Part shown: positions 2,932 to 17,989 of the stretch, piece after piece
Position numbering within the stretch: the first letter of the stretch is position 1
How the letters are laid out: each line of letters begins with the position of its first letter
Origin: a bacterium
GTDB lineage: Bacteria > UBA8248
Assembly: GCA_965202625.1 (NCBI GenBank)
Contig: CBDBBI010000010.1
Coordinates: 480,001-544,000 of the forward strand
Direction: 5' to 3'
Length of the DNA stretch: 64,000 bases
Made by a program: the position numbers and the translations under genes
Notes under the pieces: generated by a model
Told to the model about the DNA's origin: nothing
Seen by the model: only the letters and a program-made list of their open reading frames with translations
The model's database searches: none

Positions 2932-3145
2932 TTCCTGCTCTCCTTTTTATTGCTCTGTGTGCGGGCGTCGCACGCATGCTCAAATTATATAACTCCTGGA
3001 AATCGGACTCAAGATAAAACTCTGGTTAGGGGCGAAAATCAAACCCTAAGGGTGAGAAAATCAAATATGAAAATACATTATAGCCCTGGGGAAAATCCCG
3101 CGCAAGCGAAAAATAAGTCCCCTTTTTGTGTCGATCCGGGCTGAA

Positions 3146-12450: not shown

Positions 12451-13521
12451 ATGGGCGATATTCCAGAGATGATGAAGGCCGCTGTCACGCACGGTGCGGA
12501 GGAGGTGCGCATCGAGCACATTCCGGTACCCGCGTATGAGCCGGATCAGGTGTTGGTCAAGGTCGCCGCCTGCGGTGTTTGCGGCACCGACATCCACATC
12601 TACGAGGGGCACATGCGTCCGATGTGGCCGCCCCATTATCCCTTCATCCAGGGGCATGAGTGGGCGGGGGAGGTGGCCGCCATCGGGAGTCGTGCGAGAA
12701 CCACCCTCAAGGTGGGCGATCGCGTGATCATGGAGCCGACGATTGGCTGCGGGGCCTGTCCCACTTGCATCCGGGGCGACTACCATATCTGCGAGAACGC
12801 CTCAAAGCCCGACGGCGGTTATCGCCTCTTGGGCCATACGGCGAACGGCGCTTTCAGTGAATATGGCGTCGCCCCGCCAAACAATCTGCACAAGATGCCC
12901 GAATCCCTGGGCTGGGAGGAGGCGGTCATTGTGAACCAAGTCGTTATCGCCCTGCACGCCATTGAGCGCGCGGGAGTGGAGCCGGCTGACACGGTGGCGA
13001 TTCTTGGCCCTGGCCTTCTGGGGCTTTCGGTGCTACAGCTCGTCAAGATGCTAGGCGCGTCGAAAACCTATCTCACCGGCCGCGGCTATCGCTTGCGAAT
13101 AGCGGAAGAACTCGGCGCGGACGTCGTCATCGACATCACGAAGGAAGATCCAGTCGCCGTCGTCAGGCGTGATACGGGCGGCCGAGGCGTGGATTTGGCG
13201 ATCGAGTGCGCCGGCCCGCCGGAGACGATGCGCCAGGCGGTGGACATGGTCCGGCGCGGCGGGCGCGTAGTGCTGGAGGGGCTCAACGGCGGCCAGGAGG
13301 TAGCGTTCAACAGCGACCGCATTGTCCTTGATGAGATCGCGATATTTGGCGGGCGCGGGTCGCCCAACTGCTACCCGAGAGCCATTCAGATGATGGCGGA
13401 CGGCCGCATTGACACGAAGAAAATGCTCACGCACACGTTCGCGCTCGATGATTTCGCCGAGGCGATACGCATGTTCAAGGCGAGGGAAGATGGCGTCATG
13501 CGCGCGATGATCACGCCCTAG
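12451..13521 (+). CDS. Zinc-dependent alcohol/polyol dehydrogenase (MDR family)
   Basis: CGTD, GHEWAG, CGACPTC...C and GPGLLG motifs. Confidence 0.92.
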   Translation: MGDIPEMMKAAVTHGAEEVRIEHIPVPAYEPDQVLVKVAACGVCGTDIHIYEGHMRPMWPPHYPFIQGHEWAGEVAAIGSRARTTLKVGDRVIMEPTIGCGACPTCIRGDYHICENASKPDGGYRLLGHTANGAFSEYGVAPPNNLHKMPESLGWEEAVIVNQVVIALHAIERAGVEPADTVAILGPGLLGLSVLQLVKMLGASKTYLTGRGYRLRIAEELGADVVIDITKEDPVAVVRRDTGGRGVDLAIECAGPPETMRQAVDMVRRGGRVVLEGLNGGQEVAFNSDRIVLDEIAIFGGRGSPNCYPRAIQMMADGRIDTKKMLTHTFALDDFAEAIRMFKAREDGVMRAMITP

Positions 13522-13594
13522 ATTTGACGGGCGTCAACTTGCTACGCCGGCCCGCCCGATCTCTGGTTTTTGCGCTCAGGAGAAGAGAAACCCG

Positions 13595-14560
13595 ATGCCC
13601 GCGAAACTTCTGCCACTACTGTCGTGGGCAGCTACACGCAGCCCGACTGGCTCATCAATCGAGACAACTTGACGAAACGTCTCCCCCTGCGCGTGGGCGC
13701 GCGGGAGATTTGGCGCGTGCCGCCGAAGTTTCTCGAGAGTGCGTAGGACGACGCGACCCTCCTTGCGATTCGCGACATGGAGCGTGCGGGAATCGACATC
13801 ATCACGGACGGCGAGGTGCGCCGTGAGAGCTATTCCAACCGCGTGGCCACGGCTCTCGGCGGCATCGACACCAAGCGCCACGGCTTCGTCAAGGACCGAT
13901 CAGGCAGGGACAACCCTGTCCCCCGGGTGGTCGGGAAAATCCACCGCAAAAACCCTATAGAGGCGCGCGATGTCGCGTTTTTGCGCGCCAACACGGAGCG
14001 GGAGATCAAGATCACGCTGCCGGGTCCCTTCACCATGACGCAACAGGCCCAGGATGATTTCTACCATGATGAGCGGGCGATGGCGCTCGATTACGCCCGC
14101 GCGGTGAACGAGGAGATGAAGGACTCTTCAGCGCCGGGGCCGACGTGGTGCAGCTCGACGAGCCCTCTATATGCAGGCGCGCGCTGAGAAGGCGCGAGAA
14201 TTTGCCGTGGAAGTCCTCAACGCGGCCCTGGACGGCGTCGAGGAGATGACCGCCCTTCACATGTGCTTTTGGCTACGCAGCCATCGAAGCTTGGCAGGGA
14301 CTGGGAAAGCCCGACGCCTACTCCTTCCTGCCGGAGTTGAACGAGAGCGCGATCGATCAGATATCCATCGAGGCGGCCCAGCCCGGAATCGATCTCGCCA
14401 TCCTCAAGAAACTTCCGGAGAAGACCACCATATTGGGCGTCATCGACAACGGCGACCCGAAAGTCGAGTCGCCACAGGTCGTCGCGGCGCGAATTCGGGA
14501 GGTGCTCACGCACGTATCGCCCGAGCGACTCATCCCCGCTCCCGACTGCGGAATGAAATA
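13595..14560 (+). pseudogene. Cobalamin-independent methionine synthase II-like gene, 5' part (disrupted)
   Basis: TVVGSY.QPDWLI, ITDGEVRRESY, KITLPGPFT, LHMCF and PAPDCGMK motifs. Several frameshifts, in-frame TAG at 13744, and cut by the IS insertion at CGMKY. Confidence 0.85.
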
Positions 14561-14582
14561 TGGAATTTCCTAGTTTAAGGTC
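14561..14582 (+). repeat. Terminal inverted repeat (transposase-distal end)
   Basis: TGGAATTTCCTAGTTTAAGGTC. Confidence 0.95.
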
Positions 14583-14602
14583 GTTTTCTTTTCTTTTTTC
14601 TC

Positions 14603-14631
14603 TTGTATTGCTGAACATACTCTACTACACT
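14603..14631 (+). promoter_or_regulatory. Sigma70-type promoter just inside the TIR
   Basis: TTGTAT-17 bp-TACACT. The predicted +1 near A14639 coincides with the 5' base of a long stem. Confidence 0.6.
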
Positions 14632-14638
14632 CCTTGCC

Positions 14639-14792
14639 ATCGCCAAACTGTTCATGAGGGGACCTGTTTTGTCGGGTCGCCCATGGAATAGAAAACCGTT
14701 CACCTACTGATCGGAAATACATGGGAACCCACCATAACCTCGTGGATTGTTTGGCGACCGACCCGGCCTCATAGGGAGGCTGGGACTTTTTT
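14639..14792 (+). ncRNA. Unclassified structured RNA / leader attenuator (~150 nt)
   Basis: 14640-14659 pairs with 14738-14757 (19 of 20 positions, 3 G-U), enclosing two further helices. Bounded by a promoter and an intrinsic terminator. Confidence 0.6.
14762..14792 (+). terminator. Intrinsic terminator upstream of the OMP gene
   Basis: CCCGGCCTC-ATAGG-GAGGCTGGG-AC-TTTTTT. Confidence 0.7.
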
Positions 14793-14815
14793 GGGTAAGG
14801 AAAGGGGTCGCAACA

Positions 14816-15496
14816 ATGAAGCGAGGGATATTTCTGTGTGCAGTAGCTGTTCTGGGTATGGCCTTGTCCATTCCGCTCATCGCAAAAGCGGAAGAGGCGG
14901 GGAAATGGTATTTTACGCCCAGTGCAGGGTTGTTGTCGCCAAGGGACACGGATGTGGAGAGCATCGCCGGTATCAACCTGGATGATACCATCCTCAGTGG
15001 AACGGCAGAAACCGACAACGGGCTGTTTCTGAGCGCGGCAGTTGGCCGTTCTTTCGGTCGTCTGAGGGGAGAGATTGAGGCTTTTCACGGAAGATTTGAT
15101 TTCACCGAAAAAGCGGAACTGAGTGAAGCGGTTACGATTGGCGGCGTCCAGTTTGCTCCTGGAGAATATGAACTGGGAGATGGGAACGTCAAAATTACGG
15201 GGCTGATGGTGAACGCATGGGTGGACCTGGGCGCGAGCGACTGGAGCATCAACCCTTACCTGGGAGGAGGAGTTGGACTGACGCGCATCAAGGCGCCAGC
15301 TGGTTCCGACAGCGGATTCTCCTGGCAGATCGGTGGGGGTGCGCTCTTTCCCGTAAGCGAGAATGTTTCCATTGATGCCAAATATCGGTTCATGAGCACT
15401 GCCTATGAACCTGAATTTGAAGGTCTCTTTGGCGATGTCGAGTATGAGAAACTCCAGTCTCACGCATTCACGCTGGGTCTTAAGTTCACGTTCTAG
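14816..15496 (+). CDS. Outer-membrane beta-barrel protein (OmpA-TM/Opa-like, small barrel), IS passenger
   Basis: Signal peptide MKRGIFLC...AKA; LMVNAWVDL, PYLGGGVG and FSWQIGGG motifs; C-terminal LGLKFTF beta-signal. Confidence 0.9.
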   Translation: MKRGIFLCAVAVLGMALSIPLIAKAEEAGKWYFTPSAGLLSPRDTDVESIAGINLDDTILSGTAETDNGLFLSAAVGRSFGRLRGEIEAFHGRFDFTEKAELSEAVTIGGVQFAPGEYELGDGNVKITGLMVNAWVDLGASDWSINPYLGGGVGLTRIKAPAGSDSGFSWQIGGGALFPVSENVSIDAKYRFMSTAYEPEFEGLFGDVEYEKLQSHAFTLGLKFTF

Positions 15497-15512
15497 TCCT
15501 GGTTTTTCCAAG

Positions 15513-15550
15513 GCCGGCCCCTGCTGACGTAGGGGTCGGCTCTTTTCTTT
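15513..15550 (+). terminator. Intrinsic terminator between the convergent OMP and P63C genes
   Basis: GCCGGCCCCTGC-TGAC-GTAGGGGTCGGC-TCTTTTCTTT. Confidence 0.8.
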
Positions 15551-16446
15551 CAATCTTCTATGCCCAGAAGCATTTGCTCTTTCTCCTTCGGAAACGCCCG
15601 CGTAAGTCTTCCCTTGAAATCATTCCAATTCGGAGATGAGCGCATGAGCGCAATCACCGCCGCGAGGTGCTCCTTGAGTTTCGGGTGCCCAAGACTGGGC
15701 GTGAACCATTGATGGTGCTTGTGTTTTCTGTGTCCTTCGGGAGCGACAGGGTTTCTCTGTTGCAATTCTTTCAGCACGCCCGGAGCGATGCGCGCATACA
15801 CGATATCGTTGGTATAACGTCCTATGACGCTTGGGCGACTCACGCCGTCCGGGCCTGACCATTTCTTGAGCCTGAATATCTGTTCGTAAAATTCATACGG
15901 AAACGTTTTTGTCCAGGGCTGTAATTCCTTGGCTATGAATTTTTCGAGAATCACACTGAGCGCACGTTCCTCGCGTATGCGCTGATAGCCTGTCGCCTCA
16001 TCGACTAGAGCGATGATGCCTACGGCGGCAAGGGCGCGAACGAGCAGATCGCATCTCTCCGCTATGTGGGCTTGTTGCTTTGTGAGAACCTTTGCATCAC
16101 GCGCGGCCAAGACCACATTGCATACGTCAACAAGCAAAGTGGCCGGATACGCATAGGCCGTTCTTCCACCATCTGGCGGCTGAAATTCAATAGTAGAAAT
16201 GAGGCGCGCGGTTAAGTCATTGATATTGATACCTTTTTTCTCTAAATTGCCTACAAATTCGGCCATTCGGGGCGCGCCAGTTTTTTTCGCGCCCCCAGCA
16301 CTCAACCCAACGCTTGATTGAAACCCCCTCTGACTCAAGACGCGCGTCTCATCTTCCAGCACGTAGCAGGGAATCTCCACCTCTCCGATGACGAGGGGAT
16401 TGTAGGGCGTGCCCGCAATGACTTTCAAAGGCTGTTGTTTGTTCAT
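15550..16446 (-). CDS. P63C domain-containing protein, IS passenger
   Basis: IPCYVLED..RVLSQ, GIIALVDEATGYQ, PWTKTFP.EFYEQIFRL, YTNDIVYARIAPGVL and KHHQWFT, typical of phage Mx8 p63C-domain proteins. ATG overlaps the transposase stop. Confidence 0.85.
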   Translation of the reverse strand: MNKQQPLKVIAGTPYNPLVIGEVEIPCYVLEDETRVLSQRGFQSSVGLSAGGAKKTGAPRMAEFVGNLEKKGININDLTARLISTIEFQPPDGGRTAYAYPATLLVDVCNVVLAARDAKVLTKQQAHIAERCDLLVRALAAVGIIALVDEATGYQRIREERALSVILEKFIAKELQPWTKTFPYEFYEQIFRLKKWSGPDGVSRPSVIGRYTNDIVYARIAPGVLKELQQRNPVAPEGHRKHKHHQWFTPSLGHPKLKEHLAAVIALMRSSPNWNDFKGRLTRAFPKEKEQMLLGIED

Positions 16447-17312
16447 GCGCCCAGTCCTCTGCTGATGGTGAGGTCAAAAGCAAACGTCGGTTTCGCGTCG
16501 CGCAGGTTGTAGCGATAGCAGAACTCATCCACGTAGCGTTGCAGGTGCTTGCGGCTCACGCTGTGGAAGGAACCGAACATCCCCCGCTTCAGGAGCGCCC
16601 AGAAACCCTCTATGGTGTTCGTGTGCACGTCGCCGTCCACATACCATTTCTCATGCTTGATGACGCGATGCGGGAGCACCTTCTCCATGCCCCGATAGCC
16701 CATGTATTCATCCGTGATGAGCTCCGATTCGTGCGTCTTGATGCGTTCCCGGACAAACGCCCGCATATGCCGCGCCTTCATGCTTTCCTTCTTCACGGCC
16801 TTGGCAGAAACCTTTCCTCCGCGCTCGACGGCCCCCACCACCGGGGCCTTGTCGGTTCCCCTTCCGCGTTTCCTCGGAGGCTCGCCCTTGCCTTTGCGCG
16901 GCTTTCCGCCGATGTATGTTTCATCCATCTCAATGACGCCTTTCAGGAGATCGCGCCCCTCGGCTTGCGCCATTGCCTTGCGAATCTGCATGGCTATACG
17001 CCACGCCGTGTTCTTGTTCACTTTCAGATCGCGCGACAGCTGAAGGGCGGACAATCCCTTCTTGGCGTTCAGAATGAGGTTGATGGCCAGAAACCATTTC
17101 TGAAGGGGAAGGTGGGTATGATGAAAAATCGTGCCCACCGTCACGCTAAAAGACGTGATGCAATCGTAACATCTCCACCTGTGCTGGCTTCGCGCGACCT
17201 TGACGGAACCGCAATAGGGACAGCACGGCAGGTCGCCCCACCGCGCCTCCTCCAGATGCGCAATACACGATTCCTGGGTGGGAAACCTCTCGAAAATCTC
17301 TATAATGTCCAT
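16443..17312 (-). CDS. IS1595-family transposase
   Basis: Zn ribbon CPYCGS...CYDC; GTIFH; HTH; EMDETYIGG; ITDEY; HTNTIEGFW; YVDEFCYRYN. Confidence 0.95.
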   Translation of the reverse strand: MDIIEIFERFPTQESCIAHLEEARWGDLPCCPYCGSVKVARSQHRWRCYDCITSFSVTVGTIFHHTHLPLQKWFLAINLILNAKKGLSALQLSRDLKVNKNTAWRIAMQIRKAMAQAEGRDLLKGVIEMDETYIGGKPRKGKGEPPRKRGRGTDKAPVVGAVERGGKVSAKAVKKESMKARHMRAFVRERIKTHESELITDEYMGYRGMEKVLPHRVIKHEKWYVDGDVHTNTIEGFWALLKRGMFGSFHSVSRKHLQRYVDEFCYRYNLRDAKPTFAFDLTISRGLGA

Positions 17313-17387
17313 GACGTTTCCTCAGTCGGGGTAGAGTTTATCCTGAAAACACAAGAGAATCATACCCTGACCAACGGAGAACATCAA

Positions 17388-17409
17388 GACCTTAAACTAG
17401 GAAATTCCG
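17388..17409 (-). repeat. Terminal inverted repeat (transposase-proximal end)
   Basis: Reverse complement CGGAATTTCCTAGTTTAAGGTC fits the CGGnnTT end of the ISNha5 group. Confidence 0.95.
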
Positions 17410-17486
17410 ATGAAATATATGAACAGGGAAACCGCTTTCGGTAAACTCAAGTCCCTGCCATCGTGCGCCGAGAGCTCGGTAGGTAG
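17410..17486 (+). pseudogene. 3' remnant of the methionine synthase II-like gene
   Basis: MKYMNRETAFGKLKSL...AIVRRELGR* continues the CGMKY motif. Confidence 0.8.
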
Positions 17487-17989
17487 CGCTTCTCCCTGCG
17501 CTGTCATGACGGGGCTGCTTGAAGAGGCTGCTTGAAGAGGCTGTAGCCAAACAAAAATAATTGCGAATTGCCTGGAGAAACAGCGGATTTTCCGAGGTGA
17601 AACGACTTGGAAAAAGATCGTGAAGGGGAACTGAAAAAGTCGCTCAAAGCAGGTCGCCGAGCGTGATGGCGGCGAGGGTGCCCGCGTCTGCCGCACTCTT
17701 GACGTCGGGATGCGTGGAGGCATCGCGTAGCCGCTCATCAATTTTATACGTGCGCGAAAAGGGAATTGACGATAGGCGGCGTCCCCATAGAAAATAACGC
17801 GGCGACCTTCTGCGCGCGCAGGGAGCGTTTTGGTGAGGCGATGGCTCCGTCCGCGCTAATGAACGGCTGATACCGTTATTTTATGACAGATTTGGGAAAT
17901 TTTATTGTACGGGCAAAAAAAGGTAATCTAGTCTATAAATTAAGATTTCTGCTCTCTTTGTTTGCGATTTGCGCCCGTGAGGAAACCGC

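Follow-up and report, generated by a model that had tools for sequence, protein, structure and literature searches.

The stretch of DNA analysed here, which we call the window, comprises 64,000 nucleotides of contig CBDBBI010000010.1 (positions 480,001 to 544,000 of the forward strand; assembly GCA_965202625.1, bacterial lineage UBA8248), and the coordinates below count from its first letter. Our subject is a structured RNA at 14639-14792 on the + strand, which lies inside one end of an IS1595-family transposon and directly ahead of a gene for an outer membrane protein (OMP). An initial annotation, made from the letters of the window alone, had described an unannotated unit of promoter, structured RNA and terminator at this transposon end. 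Our analysis supports such a unit, for which there is no Rfam family at threshold, and leads us to read it as probably the 5' leader of the OMP messenger RNA. The features of the RNA and its gene are as follows.

14603-14631, + strand: promoter-like TTGTAT-17-TACACT, from the sequence (7/12 consensus positions; not called by the promoter scan)
14639-14769, + strand: conserved RNA core, match to covariance model R1 (111.8 bits)
14640-14659 with 14738-14757, + strand: P1 closing helix, 19 of 20 positions paired with G-U allowed (RNAfold)
14661-66 with 14673-78, + strand: P2 hairpin, GACCUG with CGGGUC (RNAfold)
14673-14679, + strand: seg2, CGGGUCG, the 3' arm of P2, near-invariant in the family and complementary to 14759-14765
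14680-85 with 14720-25, + strand: P3a, CCCAUG with CAUGGG (RNAfold)
14686-95 and 14715-19, + strand: A-rich internal loop of P3 (RNAfold)
14696-14714, + strand: P3b apical stem (RNAfold)
14726-33, + strand: junction AACCCACC, conserved
14758-66, + strand: conserved tail CCGACCCGG
14759-14765, + strand: seg3, CGACCCG, a segment of the tail that is complementary to seg2 and contributes the 5' part of the hairpin downstream
14762-14792, + strand: P4 hairpin (9 pairs, 7 of them G-C) and U6 tract, like an intrinsic terminator
14803-14818, + strand: Shine-Dalgarno-like AGGGG and ATG (14816) of the OMP gene, from the sequence
14816-15496, + strand: OMP_b-brl gene, 226 aa with signal peptide, the passenger gene behind the leader

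When 14630-14800 (+) is folded with RNAfold a single structure dominates, with a minimum free energy of -76 kcal/mol (z -5.47), and none of 200 shuffled sequences was as stable, while the reverse strand (-) of the same stretch folds far more poorly (z -2.40). The long stem, the three-way junction, the P2 hairpin and the CCCAUG/CAUGGG helix drawn in the initial annotation were all found by RNAfold where it had placed them, and the arms of P1 were also recovered by a repeat search as a 20-nt inverted repeat with 80% Watson-Crick pairing. The terminator proposed at 14762-92 ahead of the OMP ATG is present too, as a G+C-rich hairpin with a U6 tract; the hairpin itself spans 14762-14784 and is followed by ACTTTTTTGG. 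A search of the whole window against Rfam 15 found nothing at the gathering threshold, and at E<=10 the interval 14400-14950 gave only a chance match to K_chan_RES.

The -35 element of the promoter-like site lies 36 nt ahead of the start of the R1 model, at the place where the homologues described below have TTGAC. In 39/59 copies this motif precedes the model start by 28-45 nt (23 of them at exactly -33), compared to 4/349 control windows. As a sequence the promoter claimed earlier is weak, and the promoter scan was silent on it. Metatranscriptome contigs from four runs of one study place seven pieces on the interval 13500-17600, all of them within 14658-15496 and all with zero mismatches. 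One RNA-library contig of 827 nt corresponds to 14658-15484 and runs across the terminator-like hairpin and on into the OMP frame, and another begins at 14659. The contigs thus connect the structured RNA with the OMP reading frame, as the suggestion that it is the leader of this gene would have it, and their layout would fit transcription that begins near 14639 and reads through the hairpin. The intervals 13500-14657 and 15497-17600 are without RNA-contig cover, which is no evidence of silence. The contig starts at 14658 and 14659, which come from two samples, coincide with the inner end of the 5' strand of P1, about 19 nt past the predicted start; they may mark a processing site or may simply reflect 5' ends lost during assembly, and contigs cannot distinguish the two. 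Sponge-metagenome runs share only 0.17 of sampled words with the stretch, and we claim no habitat from them.

Conservation and gene context of the RNA

A DNA search of the window's own genome gave three further partial matches, each ahead of a paralogous OMP gene, and the leader is present at all three OMP paralogues, the gene in the window and two elsewhere in the genome. A sequence search of 61 genomes (60 relatives and the window's own) gave matches in 16, often several per genome. The covariance model R1, built from 31 sequences, finds 7 copies in the own genome. Its matches extend to 24 of the 51 genomes examined of the phylum (Nitrospinota) and, leaving the window's own aside, to 20 of 22 genomes of the genus, where a single genome has up to 15 copies. 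A scan by pattern through the prokaryotes, with one genome for each species, returned 36 stretches, and R1 confirmed all except one. By record title these stretches come from Nitrospinota/Nitrospinaceae, from unplaced bacteria and from metagenome-assembled genomes (MAGs) of Alphaproteobacteria, including Paracoccaceae, Rhodospirillales and Parvibaculaceae. A pattern match in L099 (Auribacterota) has no R1 match and was rejected as chance. The alphaproteobacterial copies score 40-90 bits, and five alphaproteobacterial genomes hold between 1 and 20 copies each. One 5.6-kb contig labelled Alphaproteobacteria (L094) equals the Nitrospinota-type L090 in R1 score and length and was treated as possibly mis-binned. 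A blastn search of an alphaproteobacterial copy against a plasmid collection gave no match.

The consensus of the family combines a covarying scaffold with near-invariant single strands. P1 has 17 pairs in the consensus and 17-20 bp across copies; its sequence is free, with arms that read GCCAAAC, GCCAGAT, GCCACAT or GUCACGU in different copies, and all of its pairs covary (17/17 with double changes). In P2 the 3' arm CGGGYCG is near-invariant and the 5' arm GRCCY more variable, and a single G joins P2 to P3. The six pairs of P3a are followed by an internal loop whose 5' side reads RAAUACAANA and whose 3' side reads RAAUA, with most of its positions invariant in 57-59 of 59 copies. The family form of this loop is GAAUACAANA opposite GGAAUA, and the window copy has GAAUAGAAAA opposite AAAUA. 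P3b is variable with a loop that is often CU-rich. On the 3' side of P3 come the conserved junction, a variable stretch, the 3' strand of P1 and the near-invariant tail A-CCGRCCCGR. A hairpin is always present after the tail, in a register that varies among homologues, and a U-rich tract follows it in only 5 of the 43 homologues scored; the window copy is among the few with a canonical terminator.

A check of the homologues for covariation had been proposed with the initial annotation, and the signal is strong. In a MAFFT-based alignment of the 31 sequences 93.3% of helix cells are paired and double changes are seen in 26 of 32 pairs, a result reached by none of 500 shuffles, and sliding the partner by 1-3 columns lowers pairing to 33-43%. 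The corresponding values for 58 distinct copies are 92.5% of cells and 28 of 32 pairs (0/500 shuffles; slid controls 31-44%). This second alignment was fitted to the model and is hence biased toward structure, a bias from which the MAFFT-based count is free. Within the helices G-U pairs outnumber A-C by 240 to 37, which argues for selection on the + strand RNA and not on duplex DNA.

The genes downstream of the RNA were assessed with heuristic calls of open reading frames (ORFs) and a crude regular expression for signal peptides. A start codon preceded by a Shine-Dalgarno sequence lies 34-48 nt past the model end in 29 of 59 copies. The products of ORFs within 90 nt have a signal-peptide-like N-terminus in 29 of 40 cases, many with a lipobox and then a glycine run. 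Pfam and NCBIfam families among 35 products are OMP_b-brl (3), TbpB_B_D (3), Slam-dependent surface lipoprotein (4), Sel1 (2), glycosyltransferase 25 (GT25; 2), and ankyrin, GH113, DUF4875 and SNase (1 each), and the majority of the 35 have no Pfam family. An all-against-all BLAST joins 9 lipoproteins in one cluster that includes an alphaproteobacterial member. The question of whether homologues sit before genes or at IS1595 ends, raised along with the original description, is answered by these positions: the copies stand before genes and not specifically at transposon ends, so that the constant partner of the RNA is the downstream gene.

Some copies occur close together or as repeats. A tandem pair about 70 nt apart is found at L123:577-916 (G008:C1:1849276-1849615, - strand; 85 and 39 bits), and more pairs, 0.4-2 kb apart, are present in G003, G005, G010 and G012. 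Loci L119-L122 (G002 and G012) hold a "mini" variant with a short P1 (~8 pairs) and an intact P3 core and tail. In G002 at least 8 near-identical copies of the variant lie inside a repeat that measures 1.2 kb or more (93-96% identity), and at L121 that repeat stops exactly at the RNA 3' end. One alphaproteobacterial MAG (G068; loci L072, L080, L081, L093 and L103) has families of 5 and 7 identical RNA copies, with tandem 2.1-kb duplications within the element at L080.

Carriage by IS1595 transposons

The transposon of the window contributes four further features.

14562-14593, no strand: left terminal inverted repeat (TIR), with a 21-bp perfect core at 14562-14582 (repeat search and sequence)
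15550-16446, - strand: gene for a P63C-domain protein on the transposon
16443-17312, - strand: gene for an IS1595-family DDE transposase with Zn ribbon and DDE_Tnp_IS1595 domains (Pfam E 1.4e-35 and 2.5e-09)
17377-17408, no strand: right TIR (repeat search and sequence)

The element spans 14562-17408, and a 9-bp direct repeat, ATGAAATAT, stands just outside both ends. With this repeat and the perfect TIR core the transposon end claimed in the initial annotation is real. Inside the element the order is promoter-like site, RNA and OMP gene on the + strand, and then P63C and transposase converging on the - strand. The N-terminal Zn ribbon and DDE_Tnp_IS1595 domain of the transposase, the short TIRs, a flanking duplication of the usual ~8-9 bp and the internal passenger genes are all as in known IS1595 insertion sequences. 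A literature search found no conserved structured RNA leader described for IS1595 passenger genes. In the genome the TIR 21-mer occurs only at these two ends, and the P63C-transposase segment is likewise single-copy. The transposon interrupts a gene resembling cobalamin-independent methionine synthase in its 3' end (13777-14578 and 17409-17530); upstream of the insertion this gene consists of two overlapping ORFs, 13777-14187 (Meth_synt_2) and 14171-14578, where a frameshift is possible.

A second IS1595 transposon lies in the same genome (G000:C10:1864605-1868014) with the TIR GGGAATTATATACTATAGTGCCC and an 8-bp duplication, TAAAAAAT. Its left end is 115 nt from a divergent RNA copy at 1864720-1864866 (48 bits). 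Behind this copy come four cargo ORFs and, converging on them, the other full-length IS1595 transposase of the genome, which shares 36% identity with that of the window. By tblastn, IS1595 transposases are present in 12 of the RNA loci retrieved. At L101, from a Paracoccaceae MAG, the transposase is 71% and the P63C protein 53% identical to those of the window, and a similar end sequence lies 64 nt upstream of the RNA. The RNA there (L101:2816-3060, - strand) is followed by a short hydrophobic-peptide ORF with a strong ribosome-binding site and no OMP, with a converging P63C gene next to it.

For ten genomes of the genus we compared PF12762 matches by hand with RNA matches. About 12 of the 33 IS1595 transposase loci have an RNA copy within ~3.5 kb, and about 12 of the 76 RNA copies are linked in this way, leaving some 64 copies without a nearby transposase. 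The alphaproteobacterial MAG G068 has 96 transposase matches and 20 RNA copies, at least 15 of them near a transposase, and G069 and G070 have RNA copies and no IS1595 transposase. Two layouts recur: a convergent one, in which the RNA and its cargo face the transposase (in L107 the -35 box lies within the TIR), and a co-directional one that runs from transposase to RNA to cargo. The latter is seen in L118, where the TIRs are at 373-402 and 3009-3038 and the RNA stands 1.4 kb inside, directly before the cargo. In three elements, namely that of the window, the second one of its genome and that of L107, a TIR lies 60-115 nt away from the RNA. A search for TIRs at 12 further transposase-linked loci gave clear ones only in L107 and L118 and weak ones in L110; the other nine were unconvincing (scores <=26). 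The P63C gene accompanies the RNA in only two lineages, that of the window and that of L101. The link of the RNA to IS1595 passenger modules is thus real and enriched.

Relation to sRNA-Xcc1

When nine homologue loci were searched against Rfam at E<=1, the sRNA-Xcc1 family (RF02221) fell exactly on two alphaproteobacterial copies, L088 with 34.1 bits and L101 with 30.4 bits. Searched alone, L088 gives RF02221 at E = 1.8e-4, below the gathering score of 53 bits. No Rfam family thus reaches threshold on these homologues either. In the own genome RF02221 matched none of the RNA copies and gave only an unrelated 22.9-bit match at C10:617990.

In the alignment seg2 (the 3' arm of P2) and seg3 (in the conserved tail) line up with the 5' and 3' strands of the closing helix of RF02221 (GgCcGGggG with CccCCgGcC), and P3 lines up with hairpin 1 (loop AAUACAAuA opposite GGAAu); the hairpin-1 loop feature is present and near-invariant in the 59 copies. 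Hairpin 2, which stands directly after hairpin 1 in RF02221, was not found in the leader family, where this region is the 3' strand of P1. Both families have the complementary strands GUCGGG../..CCCGRC, which could form a helix in the leader family, and after 1-3 nt a hairpin with the loop AAUACAANA / GGAAUA. Both stand behind promoter-like sequence and on mobile DNA, and in both a small hairpin and then the ribosome-binding site of the gene follow ~35-50 nt on. Unlike sRNA-Xcc1, the leader family closes its junction with a helix of 17-20 bp, built from a 5' extension and the region after P3 and replacing hairpin 2, and it caps the 5' strand of the closing helix into P2 by means of an upstream mimic (GRCCY) of the 3' strand. 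The junction order is closing helix, hairpin 1, hairpin 2 in sRNA-Xcc1 and P2, P3, P1 in the leader family. Since the cyclic order is the same, with P2 as the closing helix and P1 as an opened hairpin 2, the consensus and the alignment suggest that the leader family is apparently a circularly permuted relative of sRNA-Xcc1. The two are distinct as whole models and appear to share the core made of the seg2 helix and the P3 loop.

sRNA-Xcc1, an RNA borne by integrons, transposons, plasmids and phages, was first found in Xanthomonas campestris. In Xanthomonas it is reported as a discrete RNA of 88 nt, about 100 nt on Northern blots (PMC2996969). It has also been reported ahead of symE in the Xanthomonas integron cassette with the widest distribution (10.1101/2025.06.18.660453), in multiple copies in Xylella (PMC12189769) and upstream of an ORF6N gene in APSE phages (10.1101/2020.03.17.996009). 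A short pattern taken from the Rfam consensus led to more than 100 viral contigs, and 17 of 19 small viral loci that were scanned are bona fide RF02221 (57.7-77.5 bits), several of them beside isrK and C4. The genuine copies in phage contigs (L124-L203, for example L131:7182-7311, L133 and L153) lie ~27-60 nt ahead of antirepressor-type genes. The genes after the viral copies belong to P22_AR_C (13), KilA-N (10), Rha (9), P22_AR_N (7), ORF6N (7), AntA (6) and Bro-N (2), whereas the leader family precedes genes for surface or secreted proteins.

The viral copies also offered a way to look at mechanism. In 47 distinct copies with an ORF 20-70 nt downstream, the hairpin-2 loop was compared with the ribosome-binding region of the copy's own gene and with those of the others. 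A complementary run of at least 7 nt is found in 40/47 own pairs and in 762/2162 cross pairs, with runs that average 8.09 nt in the former and 6.19 nt in the latter. This suggests that viral sRNA-Xcc1 may be a C4-like translational repressor rather than a generic trans-acting small RNA. The C4 antisense RNA of phages P1 and P7 is encoded in a leader, uses its loops to pair with the icd-ant operon downstream, at the ribosome-binding region, and represses the antirepressor gene. The leader family resembles C4 (RF01695) in being a leader-borne structured RNA on mobile DNA ahead of a gene in need of tight control. It differs from C4 in having no sequence or structure match to it and from both C4 and sRNA-Xcc1 in lacking detectable complementarity to its own ribosome-binding region.

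Interpretation and competing explanations

We read 14639-14792 as the 5' leader of the OMP messenger RNA and as a member of a previously undescribed family of structured leader RNAs of ~125 nt that would act in cis, and we put the probability of this reading at about 0.6. A full-text literature search, the scope of which excludes the primary sRNA-Xcc1 paper and supplements, found the motif undescribed. What is new would apparently be a leader-type RNA related to sRNA-Xcc1 by permutation, in a gene context (surface and secreted proteins) and on a vehicle (passenger modules of IS1595) that are new as well. The fold, its conservation, the place between promoter and gene, the contiguity with the OMP frame in RNA contigs, the transposon carriage and the partial homology are observed, and control in cis, the switching mechanism and any ligand are inferred from them. 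Each copy would bring its own sigma-70-type promoter, the RNA core and a variable hairpin, typically with 34-48 nt to the start of a gene whose product is an exported or surface protein. The conserved tail could pair either with the strand of the downstream hairpin or with the 3' arm of P2. The hairpin strand forms a terminator-like site in the window, and elsewhere it adjoins pyrimidine-rich stretches able to cover the ribosome-binding site. The folded core would bind a putative factor or ligand and in this way bias the pairing choice of the tail. The leader and its gene together make up an IS1595 passenger module, and such carriage would account for the many copies per genome and the presence in two phyla. 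The tail exceeds its P4 partner in conservation and the register of P4 drifts, as would be expected if a constraint besides P4 acts on the tail. A switch involving the tail is therefore our leading mechanistic guess, which we hold with modest confidence.

Several results weigh against this reading. The RNA has no excess of complementarity to its own ribosome-binding region (7.44 for own and 7.37 for cross pairs), and for 30 of 59 copies no ORF was called at the usual spacing, the calls being heuristic. The RNA contigs prove neither a single transcript nor true ends, and the four RNA runs all come from one study. RF02221 gave no match on 6 Nitrospinota loci, and R1 found none of the genuine copies at E<=1 on 35 viral loci with sRNA-Xcc1-type motifs; because the searches fail in both directions, the homology rests on the two sub-threshold matches together with the shared motifs. 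As to a switch, a P1 of 17-20 bp means that the core should fold whatever the ligand, and with a U-rich tract after only 5 of 43 hairpins termination cannot be the general output. Forcing the pairing of seg2 with seg3 gives -57.0 kcal/mol compared to -75.3, a cost of 18.3 kcal/mol, and covariation of this pairing amounts to one U-A compensatory change, common to 4 related sequences.

The main rival, which we consider unlikely, is a stand-alone small RNA of ~150 nt, transcribed from its own promoter, ended at 14762-14792 and acting either in trans or, after processing, on its own mRNA. Such an RNA would also resemble the C4 RNA of P1 and P7, which represses the antirepressor gene downstream of it. 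The canonical terminator of the window copy fits this rival, as do the discreteness of sRNA-Xcc1 on the Northern blots of PMC2996969, the core shared with RF02221, the match of the genuine Xcc1 hairpin-2 loop to the downstream ribosome-binding region in 40/47 copies, and L101, in which only a small ORF comes after the RNA. It is opposed by the RNA contig that crosses the terminator into the OMP frame, by the rarity of the U tract (5/43), by the fixed spacing to the start codon (34-48 nt in 29/59) and by the missing signal of own-target complementarity in the leader family.

An improbable explanation is a small-molecule riboswitch that works by a terminator/antiterminator switch, with seg2:seg3 competing against P4. 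The family resembles the orphan riboswitch candidates of the Breaker/Weinberg type in its conserved and covarying multi-helix junction, aptamer-like in fold and 5' of genes. Like them it has near-invariant unpaired nucleotides, here in two phyla, it occurs in many copies per genome and occasionally in tandem, as in the G008 pair, and it has a variable hairpin after the core that looks like an expression platform. It differs in its very long P1, in its transposon carriage and in its downstream genes, which form no coherent metabolic set and point to no metabolite. The switch itself goes back to the built-in antiterminator of the initial annotation, and both alternative pairings named there are literally complementary (14673-79 with 14759-65, and 14654-59 with 14767-72). 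The first of them is indeed conserved and pairs in 94.5% of cells, but shuffles give 94.0%, both strands being near-invariant. When the helix is extended by two pairs, 51/58 and 33/58 copies pair compared to 47.2 and 29.9 expected by chance. The pairing would compete with P1, P2 and P4, and its segments lie at opposite ends of the 17-20 bp helix, so that P1 must open. In its favour, each of the two complementary segments, seg2 and the tail, exceeds its other partner, in P2 or P4, in conservation. The terminator/antiterminator switch nevertheless remains weak, because of the energy cost noted above, the need to open P1 and conservation without covariation, and terminators are rare in the family. 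The complementarity of seg2 and seg3 appears to owe its meaning to homology with the closing helix of sRNA-Xcc1. Another pairing, of GGGU in seg2 with ACCC in the junction, was proposed by RNAalifold on 3 sequences and was dropped, since C52 faces A140 in 20/58 copies.

It is very unlikely that the RNA serves the transposon itself, as a partner of the IS1595 transposase or P63C in, for example, the control of transposition. This had been proposed in the initial annotation, and the proximity of the RNA to ~12/33 transposase loci, of at least 15/20 copies in G068 to a transposase, the 60-115 nt to a TIR in three elements and the P63C gene in the window and L101 could all be taken in its favour. 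The wider comparison speaks against it: some 64 of 76 copies have no nearby transposase, G069 and G070 have no IS1595 transposase, P63C occurs with the RNA in two lineages only, and the L118 copy is internal to its element and directly before the cargo. In addition, the RNA always faces a downstream gene and never the transposase.

To a DNA-level element, be it a miniature inverted-repeat transposable element (MITE) with TIRs, an integron attC site or an invertible promoter switch, we give almost no credence and rejected all three: inverted repeats of 17-20 bp around ~80 bp, multiple copies with mobile DNA and surface-protein genes, and the integron association of sRNA-Xcc1 (10.1101/2025.06.18.660453) may recall such elements, but covarying arms around an invariant interior are the opposite of a transposase-bound TIR, the excess of G-U over A-C (240 vs 37) is strand-specific, the arm sequences vary without keeping an attC core and are unlike the IS1595 TIRs, the promoter lies outside the repeats, and the copies are dispersed and not arrayed.

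A broader picture is possible, which we offer tentatively. A circularly permuted, leader-like offshoot of sRNA-Xcc1 may have been adopted by IS1595 transposons as a portable promoter and RNA switch, delivering and regulating genes for surface lipoproteins, OMPs and eukaryote-like proteins across phyla of marine bacteria. The sRNA-Xcc1 class itself might be a widespread, unrecognised element of translational control on mobile DNA. The core could respond to a shared signal or factor, which would let a single input coordinate up to 20 dispersed surface-protein genes per genome.

The family stands beyond Rfam 15, has unusually clean covariation and lies ahead of dozens of surface- and secreted-protein genes in Nitrospinota and some Alphaproteobacteria. 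As part of the cargo modules of IS1595 transposons it would be a mobile regulatory cassette common to phyla, and such units have rarely been documented. The partial homology ties it to sRNA-Xcc1, which is annotated in many phages, integrons and pathogens, and the loop matching seen in phage contigs supplies a model that can be tested across the whole superfamily. Should there be a ligand or a protein partner, it would show how these bacteria coordinate their surface.

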